The notes under the pieces are model-generated. The model was not told where the DNA came from. It ran no database searches and was given only the letters and a program-made list of their open reading frames with translations. Shown here one piece after another: positions 15,858 to 18,318 of a DNA stretch of 22,479 nt. The stretch is from an uncultured bacterium (GTDB lineage: Bacteria > Hydrothermota > UBA3073 > NMUJ01): NCBI GenBank assembly GCA_965612795.1, contig CBFDTI010000013.1, positions 1 through 22,479 on the forward strand, read 5' to 3'. The first letter of the stretch is position 1; each line of letters opens with the position of its first letter. A program made the translations under genes and the position numbers.

Positions 15858-15876
15858 TTCGATAAGTTAGTTGTAG

Positions 15877-15949
15877 TGCCCCCAACCGGACTCGAACCGG
15901 TACTACCACCTTGAAAGAGTGGTGTCCTAACCGCTTAGACGATGGGGGC
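15877..15949 (-). tRNA. tRNA-Glu(TTC), no encoded CCA
   Basis: GCCCCCA/TGGGGGC acceptor stem, anticodon arm CCACT-CT-TTC-AA-GGTGG, GGTTCGAGTCC T arm; followed by CTA. Confidence 0.95.
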
Positions 15950-15953
15950 ACCA

Positions 15954-16026
15954 TGGGCCGTGCGGGACTCGAACCCGCGACCCCTGGATTAAAAATCCAG
16001 TACTCTACCAGCTGAGTTAACGGCCC
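15954..16026 (-). tRNA. tRNA-Lys(TTT), no encoded CCA
   Basis: GGGCCGT/ACGGCCC acceptor stem, anticodon arm CTGGA-TT-TTT-AA-TCCAG, GGTTCGAGTCC; followed by TGG. Confidence 0.95.
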
Positions 16027-16038
16027 GCTGTCACAGAG

Positions 16039-16130
16039 CGGAGAGGGGGGGATTTGAACCCCCGGTCCCGCTTTTTAGCGGGACACGCGATTTCCAATCG
16101 CGCTCCTTCACCGGGCTCGGACACCTCTCC
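16039..16130 (-). tRNA. tRNA-Ser(GGA), no encoded CCA
   Basis: GGAGAGG/CCTCTCC acceptor stem with G discriminator, anticodon arm CGCGA-TT-GGA-AA-TCGCG, long variable arm TCCCGCT-AAA-AGCGGGA; followed by CTC. Confidence 0.95.
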
Positions 16131-16140
16131 ATACATTATA

Positions 16141-16167
16141 AATATGGGGCTAAACGGATAGAGTCAA
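16141..16167 (-). promoter_or_regulatory. Putative promoter of the tRNA-dut unit
   Basis: TTGACT (16167-16162)-15 nt-CATATT (16146-16141), 10 nt before tRNA-Ser; a TATAAT also lies at 16140-16135. Confidence 0.55.
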
Positions 16168-16225
16168 CCCAGTTGAATAACAGCTTAATAGCTTATCGAT
16201 AGTCGCTCGTGATAGGGTGCGATAC

Positions 16226-16252
16226 TTGAAGCAATCCGATTTGCGTTATATT
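16226..16252 (+). promoter_or_regulatory. Putative promoter giving a leaderless prfB mRNA
   Basis: TTGAAG-15 nt-TATATT, ending 6 nt before ATG 16259; no SD before that ATG. Confidence 0.5.
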
Positions 16253-16258
16253 TAAAAG

Positions 16259-17324
16259 ATGGGGGTGAAGGAGATTAAGGATAGGTTTGAGAGTTTGCGG
16301 AGGTTTATTTGACCTCGAAGCCAAACGGCAGCGGTTACGTGAGCTACAGGAGAGGTTGAACCAGCCTGACGTATGGCGGTCACCTGAGGCAAGCAGGTTA
16401 TCACGTGAATATAAGGAGTTGATGGAGCTGCTTGACGAGTTTGAGCGGCTCGAACGTGAGGTACGAGATATTGTGGAGCTATCGGAGTTGATGGGTGAGG
16501 ACGAATCGCTGAAACATGAGGTAGATAAGTTGGTGAAACAGCTTGATGAGTTTGAATTAAAAGTTGTGCTATCAGGTGAGTACGATCGTAACGATGCGAT
16601 ATTGAGTATACATCCAGGTGCTGGTGGTACGGAATCGTGTGATTGGGCAGCCATGTTGTTCAGGATGTACGTGAGGTGGGCCGAACGCAAGGGCTATGGG
16701 ATAAAGGTGTTACAGTACGAGCCGGGTGAGGTTGCAGGCATAAAAGCGGTCACCATGCATATATCAGGGCCGTATGCGTATGGGTATTTGAAGGCTGAAC
16801 GTGGTGTACATAGGTTGGTGAGGATATCGCCGTTTGATGCCAGCCGGCGTCGTCATACGTCGTTTGCTGCGTGTCAGGTGTATCCATATATTGAGGAGGA
16901 TCTGGATGTGGAGATCGATGAGAAGGATTTGCGGATAGAGACGTTTCGTGCGAGTGGGCCCGGTGGTCAGTACGTTAATGTTACGGATTCGGCGGTTAGG
17001 GTCACACACATACCTACAGGTATAGTTGTGTCGTGTCAGAGTGAACGTTCACAGTATCAGAACAAGATGACCGCGTTGAGGATACTCAAGATGCGCCTGT
17101 ATCAGTTGAAACGCGAGGAGCAACGTCGTAAGTTGGATGAGCTTAGGGATAAGAGTGATATCGGGTGGGGGTACGAGATACGGTCGTATGTGTTACATCC
17201 GTACAAGTTGGTGAAAGATCATCGTACGGGGTATGAATCGACCAACCCTGACCTGGTGTTGGATGGTGAGATAGATGATTTCATAAGAGCGTACTTGTTG
17301 AAACCCAAAGATGGAAAGGAGTGA
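16259..17324 (+). CDS. prfB: Peptide chain release factor 2, with programmed +1 frameshift (~354 aa)
   Basis: Frame 0 from ATG 16259 reads MGVKEIKDRFESLRRFI then TGA (16310-16312); the +1 frame continues DLEAKRQ... with GAGGTES.DWA, SPF and GGQ motifs. The track's TTG start at 16287 is probably not the real start. Confidence 0.95.
16298..16313 (+). other. RF2 programmed +1 frameshift cassette, variant ATT-TGA-C
   Basis: CGG AGG TTT ATT TGA C: internal SD GGAGG, 3-nt spacer, shift codon, weak stop TGAC; aligns with E. coli AGG GGG TAT CTT TGA C. Confidence 0.85.
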
Positions 17325-18318
17325 TTGGCAGATACTCGACGTTAATATCAACAGGTTGGTTGAGGCGTTACGGGTGTTGGAGGATATCTGTCGGTTTAAG
17401 TATAAGTTGGTACAGGCGGCGAGGGGGTTGAAGTTGTTACGACATGAGGTAACCAGCTGGCGAAGTAAGTTTAGCGATCAGCTGCTACGTAGTAGGTGGT
17501 CGGAAACTGATCTGGGTAGGAAAGATTACGATCTACCGTATGGGGTGGCGAACCTGTGGGAGACGAACTTCAACCGTGCCAAAGAGAGTGTCAGGGTGAT
17601 CGAGGAGCTAACACGTGTGTTGATACCTGAGGATGTGTCACTTGTACGGGGGTGGCGGTTTAAGCTGTACGATATGGAGAAGGAATACCTGAAGAAAGAG
17701 CTTGATCTCAGCTTCTATGCGATTGTGGGTGAGGAGCTGTTCAACCTCGACATCAAGCATGTAGTGGATGTATTCGCCAACGGTGGTGTAACCGCAATAC
17801 AGTTGAGGGTTAAGCAGCTAAGTGACCGCAAGTGCTGGCAGCTGGCGGATGAGCTACATAAGCTGACGGGTGGATATAATATACCACTGATAATCAACGA
17901 TCGTGTCGATATAGCGCTTGCGGTGGATGCTGAAGGTGTACATCTTGGGCAAGATGATATGCCGGCTGATATCGCAAGAAAGCTGTTGGGTTACGGTAAG
18001 CTTCTGGGTGTTACGGTGCATTCGGTGGAGGAGGCTAAGCTGGCAGAGGAGATGGGTGCTGACTACTTGGGGGTGAGCTCACCGTTTGTGTCGAAGACAA
18101 AGGATAAAATCATACTTAAGCCGTCGGAAATACGTGAGATAAAGCAAAACGTGGATATACCAGTTATTGTTGTGGGTGGTGTAAATCTCGACAATGTCGA
18201 GCAGGTGCTATCAATCGGTATCGATGGTGTTGCTGTACATCAGGCGCTGTTCGAACCACCCGATATCGAACAGAACGTTAGGCGATTGGGGGTAAAAATA
18301 TTGAAATTACGTGAATAA
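17311..18318 (+). CDS. thiE: Thiamine-phosphate synthase with N-terminal ThiD2-like helical domain
   Basis: ILDVNINRLVEALRVLEDICRF and NFNRAKESVRVIEE in the N-terminal part; QLRVK, INDRVDIALAVDAEGVHLGQDD, GADYLGV in the TMP synthase domain. Confidence 0.9.
   Translation: MERSDWQILDVNINRLVEALRVLEDICRFKYKLVQAARGLKLLRHEVTSWRSKFSDQLLRSRWSETDLGRKDYDLPYGVANLWETNFNRAKESVRVIEELTRVLIPEDVSLVRGWRFKLYDMEKEYLKKELDLSFYAIVGEELFNLDIKHVVDVFANGGVTAIQLRVKQLSDRKCWQLADELHKLTGGYNIPLIINDRVDIALAVDAEGVHLGQDDMPADIARKLLGYGKLLGVTVHSVEEAKLAEEMGADYLGVSSPFVSKTKDKIILKPSEIREIKQNVDIPVIVVGGVNLDNVEQVLSIGIDGVAVHQALFEPPDIEQNVRRLGVKILKLRE

Follow-up and report, generated by a model that had tools for sequence, protein, structure and literature searches.

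The recoding signal CUU_UGA_C of prfB, the gene for release factor 2 (RF2), is a textbook case of a hyper-conserved sequence, and the locus described here raises the question of whether such a signal can work once the first base of its slippery codon has been replaced. The window, that is, the whole stretch of DNA that was analysed (22,479 nucleotides (nt) of contig CBFDTI010000013.1, from an uncultured marine bacterium of the phylum Hydrothermota), carries on its forward strand, at 16259 to 17324, a prfB gene whose shift codon is ATT instead of CTT. The site is a true prfB recoding site, classical in kind apart from its non-canonical P-site codon, and the departure from CTT is a lineage trait: the host genus is fixed for ATT, and another family of the phylum (f15) for ATT or GTT. 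The gene is likely to depend on a functional +1 shift that autoregulates RF2 and during which tRNA-Ile(GAU) would move from AUU to UUU. Throughout the text, G, L and f numbers are our handles for genomes, loci and families, and X numbers for public sequencing runs.

The cassette and its gene

The cassette consists of two open reading frames (ORFs) joined by the shift site, with an internal Shine-Dalgarno-like (SD) element. Its features are the following:

16259..16312, forward strand: prfB ORF1 in the 0 frame, with ATG, 17 codons and TGA; its peptide, MGVKEIKDRFESLRRFI, is the RF2 N-terminal helix segment
16261..16265, forward strand: G-run of polymorphic length, with five Gs in the window and X2 and four in X3, X5, X16 and G002
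16265..16267, forward strand: GTG start, the only ORF1 start in frame in all strains seen, from which ORF1 has 15 codons
16287..16289, forward strand: rival TTG start in the +1 frame, 8 codons 5' of the shift, giving a product of 345 amino acids (aa), MRVCGGLFDLE...
16299..16303, forward strand: internal SD-like GGAGG, 3 nt 5' of the shift codon
16304..16306, forward strand: spacer and E-site codon TTT, the same spacer as in CTT relatives of the host class (GGGAGG TTT CTT TGA)
16307..16309, forward strand: shift codon ATT (Ile) in place of CTT, forming with T 16310 the slippery A-TT-T
16310..16313, forward strand: RF2-specific stop TGA followed by C 16313, a weak stop context, as read in the sequence
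16311..17324, forward strand: prfB ORF2 in the +1 frame, from GAC CTC GAA to the TGA at 17322-24, encoding the RF2 body

The original prediction, made from the letters of the window, described a prfB cassette that was intact apart from ATT in place of CTT, and this description holds: GGAGG, the 3-nt spacer, TGAC and the +1 continuation into DLE are all read in the letters CGG AGG TTT ATT TGA C, and the product is assigned to RF2 by the TIGR00020 model. The slippery CUU_U of prfB cassettes is missing, since ATT stands at 16307-09, and its -TT_T part is retained. The other hallmarks of such cassettes are present, namely an RF2 gene, an ORF1 that ends in TGA and is followed by a body in the +1 frame, an SD with its anti-SD, and a C after the TGA. 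The 3' end of the host 16S rRNA reads ...GGATTACCTCCTTT / ...ACCTCCTTT, with an anti-SD that matches the internal GGAGG, and the 0 frame of ORF1 is closed by a TAA one codon 5' of the ATG at 16259-61. In the frameshift product, the junction would read ...RRF-I-DLEAK..., and its tryptic peptide, FIDLEAK, contrasts with the N-terminal peptide MRVCGGLFDLEAK.

The host genome (G000), 99.48% complete, is an assembly of 128 contigs that add up to 1,423,495 bases. When the ATTT is taken in one step, the fused prfB product (P0001) is an uninterrupted protein of 354 aa, in which I17 is the sole residue read otherwise. This protein scores 487.8 bits against TIGR00020 (cut-off 370), with residues 4-346 matching profile positions 2-352 of 353, and remains below the cut-offs of the RF1 models; moreover, it contains the Pfam PCRF and RF-1 domains and visible SPF and GGQ motifs. 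G000 holds one RF2 copy, the second homologue being RF1-like with 38% identity. The gene is, thus, the single prfB of the genome and encodes class-I release factor 2. In a crude count, TGA is the most used stop, closing 386 of 933 ORFs of at least 200 aa, and no tRNA with a UCA anticodon is found among the 46 tRNAs of G000; TGA is a genuine stop in this genome and RF2 is needed.

On the 3' side, the next ORF (335 aa, 17311-18318, with its ATG at 17311) overlaps the final 14 bases of prfB. On the 5' side, prfB is immediately preceded at 15876-16130 by three minus-strand tRNA genes, for Glu(UUC), Lys(UUU) and Ser(GGA), so that the region upstream of prfB is a short divergent intergenic stretch of ~130 nt. 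A scan of 16000-16400 for sigma-70-type consensus promoters returned 0 sites, and the leaderless mRNA proposed in the original prediction, with its 5' end at the ATG, is left unsupported.

ATT as a trait of two lineages

The stretch is contained in 19 public runs from 16 studies, and four of these runs (X2, X3, X5 and X16, from four studies) were compared as contigs; bridging pieces over the cassette are listed for X2, X5 and X16, and X3 is known by its depth of 75 in the bin alone. X16 is an RNA run, the contig of which spans prfB and says nothing on transcription or on the frame used. Between 16258 and 16363, the length of the G-run is the sole difference listed among the four contigs, and elsewhere in the same contigs 7 (X2), 12 (X5) and 37 (X16) letters differ from the window. 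A further species of the genus, G002 (~89-97% DNA identity over the aligned pieces), has an identical cassette, GCGGAGGTTTATTTGACC. Moreover, public collections contain strain variants of the protein read from the +1 ORF, and those aligned all have ...VCGGLFDLE (13/13), a reading that determines the cassette letters GTTTGCGGAGGTTTATTTGAC. The A at 16307 is a true base and not an error, as the original prediction had read it.

An error of sequencing or assembly behind this A, or a decay of prfB as part of genome reduction, finds some ground in an assembly of 1.42 Mb broken into 128 contigs and in the G002 copy of prfB, where duplications and deletions make a faulty assembly evident. Nevertheless, the contigs of the four runs, each from a different study, share this base with G002 and the 13 protein variants; ORF2 is intact and well over the prfB cut-off, in a genome with this sole RF2 and with TGA as its commonest stop; and ATT is fixed across the divergent family f15. 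Furthermore, the cassette coincides in homologous position with the site at which 107 relatives have their frameshift, it is unchanged across runs, and is therefore no chance pattern. An artefact or a pseudogene is, on this evidence, hardly credible.

The length of the G-run at 16261-65 bears on the beginning of ORF1. In X3, X5, X16 and G002 it is one G shorter, and with four Gs the ATG at 16259 falls out of frame (ATG GGG TGA), so that ORF1 would then start at GTG 16265. The stop after 17 codons, given in the original prediction, is thus correct for the five-G strain, whereas in the four-G strains it follows 15 codons counted from the GTG. The 5' part of the ORF1 frame is open in G002, and its coding is not conserved in the window. 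In the four-G version, ATG GGG TGA also constitutes a two-codon mini-ORF, the TGA of which overlaps the GTG of ORF1 (GTGA overlap); judging from this arrangement, the overlap could couple the initiation of ORF1 to another stop read by RF2.

The phylum was searched with the 354-aa RF2, covering 272 genomes, with an RF2 match at E <= 1e-80 in 250 of them. Sites were read in 125 genomes (G000 plus 29 and 95 regions), leaving aside 28 matches that look in frame and 101 further matches. The frameshift is present in 108 of these 125 genomes, in which the sites are distributed as follows:

CTT-TGA: 86 genomes
CTT-TAA: 5 genomes
ATT-TGA: 16 genomes, G000 included
GTT-TGA: 1 genome (G036)
In frame, no shift: 16 genomes
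Cut by a contig end: 1 genome

Within this set, all ATT sites beyond G000 and G002 fall in a single family, f15. Sixteen f15 genomes in which the gene is present were examined; 15 of them, spanning five genera, read GGGAGG TAT ATT TGA N, and the sixteenth, G036 (L023), reads GGGAGG TAT GTT TGA C. The base after the TGA in the 15 ATT sites is A in 11, C in two, G in one and T in one. The N-terminal parts of RF2 within f15 show 45-95% pairwise identity (median 65%), a low identity that indicates that the ATT variant has been kept through substantial divergence. Consequently, the view of ATT as a one-off, held in the original prediction, gives way to that of a lineage trait common to family f15.

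In G036, a further effect of the GTT is that an ATG arises in the +1 frame, one base past the SD (T ATG TTT GAC); its spacing looks too short for initiation, and the coincidence is an odd one.

In the host class, the relatives with a frameshift all carry CTT, typically as GGGAGG TTT CTT TGA (in f4, eight genes, a single one of which is CTT-TAA; in f7, one gene). In the remaining families of the class, f2, f3, f5 and f6, prfB is in frame, the genes of these relatives being devoid of the stop. The sequence in family f42, whose listing is close to that of f15, is CTCGGGAGGTAT CTT TGA and equals the f15 cassette except for its C. The CTT with a TTT spacer in the host class, together with this f42 cassette, suggests two separate C-to-A changes, and the ATT of f15 probably arose by a change separate from that in the host lineage. 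In the tree of full-length RF2, G000 groups with its own class (support of 91 in the Shimodaira-Hasegawa-like approximate likelihood ratio test, SH-aLRT) and the f15 pair groups with f10 (94), and the best RF2 trees require two changes to ATT. In the opposite direction, a single ATT clade is compatible with the approximately unbiased (AU) tests, which give p = 0.557 for 137 columns and p = 0.186 for the full length. The RF2 trees, thus, favour two origins of ATT without proving them.

The survey also bears on the other parts of the signal. Among the CTT-TGA sites of the phylum, 11 of 86 lack a match of at least 3 to the SD consensus. CTT TGA A sites without a recognisable SD (TTAGAC TAT, ATTTCC TAT), or with GCGGCA only, occur at L060, L064, L069, L070 and L077 in f26 and at L081, L091 and L097 in f9 g13, and the SD seems to be dispensable in some lineages of the phylum. 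The CTT TAA sites, 5 of the 108 in the phylum, are those of L010 (G015) and of L078, L098, L099 and L100 (f27). Outside the phylum, 160 RF2 loci from metagenome and genome contigs were inspected, a sample strongly biased to Lachnospiraceae and to distant RF2s, in which neither ATT nor GTT was found (0 among ~141 frameshift sites). Nine sites of this sample (L128, L140, L206, L211-L213, L220, L224 and L230) are CTT TAA, the occurrence of which agrees with the 1.4% TAA class given in the accessible text of PMC12421855. One metagenome contig, L134 (500-640), encodes an RF2 58% identical to that of the host and reads ...CGG AGC TGT TTT TGA C, that is, UUU_U with an off-consensus SD spacing.

Routes to full-length RF2

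The 0-frame peptide of ORF1 reads as the true N-terminus of RF2: in an alignment of 26 RF2 N-termini it is colinear with the in-frame homologues, the shift position is occupied by L, I or V in 26/26, and in-frame relatives match the query from its residues 2-4 onwards. A full-length body could also be obtained with no frameshift at all, if RF2 were made from TTG 16287 as the 345-aa product and ORF1, with its ATT-TGA, were decayed or merely a regulatory upstream ORF. The TTG lies in an open +1 frame and is preceded by AAGGA at a distance of 6 nt, it is kept in 13/13 strain variants, and it is the start used by the public gene calls, in which the 345-aa product forms a cluster of 29 members and the fused 354-aa product is not in the collection. 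However, this product would exchange the conserved N-terminal helix segment, which ORF1 encodes in the 0 frame, for 8 unrelated residues. Moreover, SD, spacer, NTT, TGA and C are all kept at canonical spacing, whereas the in-frame relatives have lost the stop and, according to the accessible text of PMC12421855, in-frame prfB genes lose the SD and the slippery sequence. The conservation of the TTG is uninformative because the strain variants are 98-100% identical, and its presence means little since a +1-frame start codon 5' of the shift is also found in 16 of 91 canonical CTT genes. Furthermore, in 11 of the 15 f15 ATT genes no upstream ATG, GTG or TTG is present in the open +1 frame, so that the shift is there the only route to the full N-terminus. 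The original prediction had singled out TTG 16287 as the start by which the shift might be bypassed; the codon, its AAGGA and its use in public calls are real, and the bypass itself is improbable in view of the ORF1 homology and of these 11 f15 genes.

In the public cluster of the 345-aa product, some members have L as first residue, and one is named 'hypothetical protein' / 'release factor domain-containing'. The only substitution seen in the overlap is R2K (P0010, +1 frame), which, to judge from the protein, would be GAG>GAA and silent in ORF1.

We infer from the sequence that the shift takes place through P-site re-pairing under the control of the RF2 level. Ribosomes would translate the short ORF1 and, when RF2 is plentiful, would terminate at its TGA. 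When RF2 is scarce, the GGAGG, 3 nt 5' of the shift codon, would pair with the anti-SD of the 16S rRNA, and the peptidyl-tRNA-Ile(GAU) would leave AUU and re-pair on the overlapping UUU, keeping A35:U and G34:U and leaving a U36:U mismatch at the first position; GAC would be decoded next, yielding full-length RF2. The 46 tRNA genes of G000 include one tRNA-Ile(GAU), one tRNA-Leu(GAG) and three CAU tRNAs, and SD-like sequences before starts are common in this genome. Since tRNA-Ile(GAU) is the only tRNA of G000 that reads ATT, re-pairing on UUU would carry a first-position U:U mismatch, in agreement with the original prediction. With CUU and tRNA-Leu(GAG), the first-position pair after the shift is a G:U wobble.

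The mismatch makes it conceivable that the frame changes with no re-pairing in the P site, with tRNA-Ile staying near AUU and Asp-tRNA reading GAC out of frame (A-site occlusion or out-of-frame decoding), driven by the tension between SD and anti-SD and by slow termination. U36:U1 cannot pair, and neither can C36:U1 in the case of the GTT of G036; in addition, the full GGAGG core at 3-nt spacing is found in 17/17 non-CTT sites of the phylum, whereas CTT sites tolerate weak or absent SDs. Nevertheless, these 17 sites represent two lineages only, which makes the association with the SD weak, and every natural variant seen keeps -UU_U (CUU, AUU and GUU in the phylum; UUU in L134 and, as far as its accessible text goes, in PMC12421855). 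This retention is predicted by re-pairing of anticodon positions 34 and 35 and is not required by the out-of-frame A-site model, which appears unlikely.

Several points, to which the AAGGA-preceded TTG and its conservation belong, weigh against the proposed shift by P-site re-pairing on AUU_U. The tRNA-Ile of G000 has A37, and the genes tsaC and tsaD for N6-threonylcarbamoyladenosine (t6A) are present, so that a bulky modification is expected beside the mismatched position. No compensating RNA structure is found on the 3' side, the fold of 16310-16400 having z = -0.69 with 48/200 shuffles folding equally well. In the accessible text of a 2016 review (PMC5009743), CUU_U is 'by far the most efficient' of 32 shift codons tested in E. 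coli. Finally, the shift is a prediction for an uncultured organism.

Three candidate reasons for the tolerance of ATT failed, one of them being the compensating 3' structure just mentioned. The loss of tRNA-Leu(GAG) is out as the cause of the switch, given that G000 has this tRNA and that pattern search and ARAGORN find it for 15 of 20 f15 genomes, the five f15 genomes with no match being 73-95% complete; with tRNA-Leu(GAG) still encoded, the change to ATT was not forced by its disappearance. A loss of t6A37 that would loosen the pairing on AUU is likewise out, since TsaC/Sua5-family proteins and TsaD score over their cut-offs in 5/5 genomes (G000 and four of f15). Separately, an avoidance of CTT-TGA at ordinary gene ends of G000, which would be a sign that CUU_UGA is shifty and AUU_UGA is not, was dropped as weak and dependent on the threshold: the counts are 0 vs 8 (p = 0.024) for ORFs of at least 200 aa, 4 vs 15 (p = 0.16) for at least 100 aa and 0 vs 4 (p = 0.14) for at least 300 aa.

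Precedents and known systems

According to the accessible text of PMC12421855 (2025), the frameshift occurs in 8,164 of 12,753 RefSeq genomes, with CTTTGA 'present in nearly every' motif; the exceptions named there are 21 TTTTTGA genomes (Aquificota and Gammaproteobacteria), a TAA stop occurs in 1.4%, and its main text, to the same extent, has 0 occurrences of 'ATT' or 'AUU'. The 2016 review (PMC5009743), within its accessible part, describes CUU_U as highly conserved and UUU_U as confined to a small minority. Thus, the near-universality of CTT with TTT as the only exception, as put forward in the original prediction, corresponds to what these two sources name. In the accessible text of PMC1874602, UUU is found in 0/259 frameshifted RF2 genes, and AUU-UGA (flatworms) and GUU-UGA (some fungi, algae and crabs) are natural +1 sites of antizyme. 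A full-text literature search for prfB with AUU-UGA or ATT-TGA strings gave one paper, the title of which has nothing to do with frameshifting, and an earlier mention in primary mutagenesis work is possible. Within these limits, the prfB literature names CUU_U and rare UUU_U only, and AUU-UGA and GUU-UGA are known from eukaryotic antizyme only.

The occurrence of ATT in two lineages and of GTT in one f15 member makes the natural prfB rule look like NUU_UGA and not CUU_UGA, with a first base of the slippery codon that is not absolutely constrained. AUU_U and GUU_U have become fixed across a divergence of family rank, and the uncultured phylum in which this is seen lies beyond surveys based on RefSeq. 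If they shift efficiently, the near-universal C would be an optimisation and not a requirement. The original prediction inferred from ATT an altered efficiency of the shift or an altered RF2 set-point, which may or may not apply. As a tentative and rather doubtful extension to the phylum, the AUU_U of two lineages and the GUU_U of one might mean either that a -UU_U core with a strong SD suffices or that the ribosome, tRNA-Ile/Val or the RF2 set-point has undergone a lineage-specific adaptation. These sites also offer naturally occurring sequences with which the two debated mechanisms, re-pairing in the P site and out-of-frame decoding in the A site, can be told apart. Moreover, they reveal an annotation gap, in which public collections carry only the 345-aa TTG-start product, shortened at its N-terminus; with no other product on record, prfB of these lineages will be called wrongly by pipelines built around CTTTGA.

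The closest known system is the canonical prfB signal CUU_UGA_C of E. coli and most bacteria, with which the host site shares the gene, the ORF1/ORF2 layout, the GGAGG 3 nt upstream, the UGA followed by C, and UUU as the codon after the shift. They differ in the P-site codon, which is AUU read by tRNA-Ile(GAU) in the host and CUU read by tRNA-Leu(GAG) in the canonical signal, and in the first-position pair expected after the shift, the G:U wobble becoming a U:U mismatch. A further difference concerns position 37, which is A in the host tRNA-Ile, with t6A expected, and G in tRNA-Leu, modified to 1-methylguanosine (m1G). The UUU_UGA variant of prfB, described in the accessible text of PMC12421855, also has CUU replaced by another NUU with SD, spacing and TGA kept; however, UUU_U re-pairs perfectly in the +1 frame, whereas AUU_U and GUU_U would remain unpaired at the first position. 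A more distant resemblance is that to antizyme (OAZ; PMC1874602, accessible text), which uses the same +1 shifty-stop logic of NUU_UGA in an autoregulatory sensor, a likeness of mechanism suggested by the sequence and not a homology. Unlike prfB, antizyme is eukaryotic and encoded by an unrelated gene, senses polyamines, and is stimulated by 5' elements and 3' pseudoknots, with no SD.
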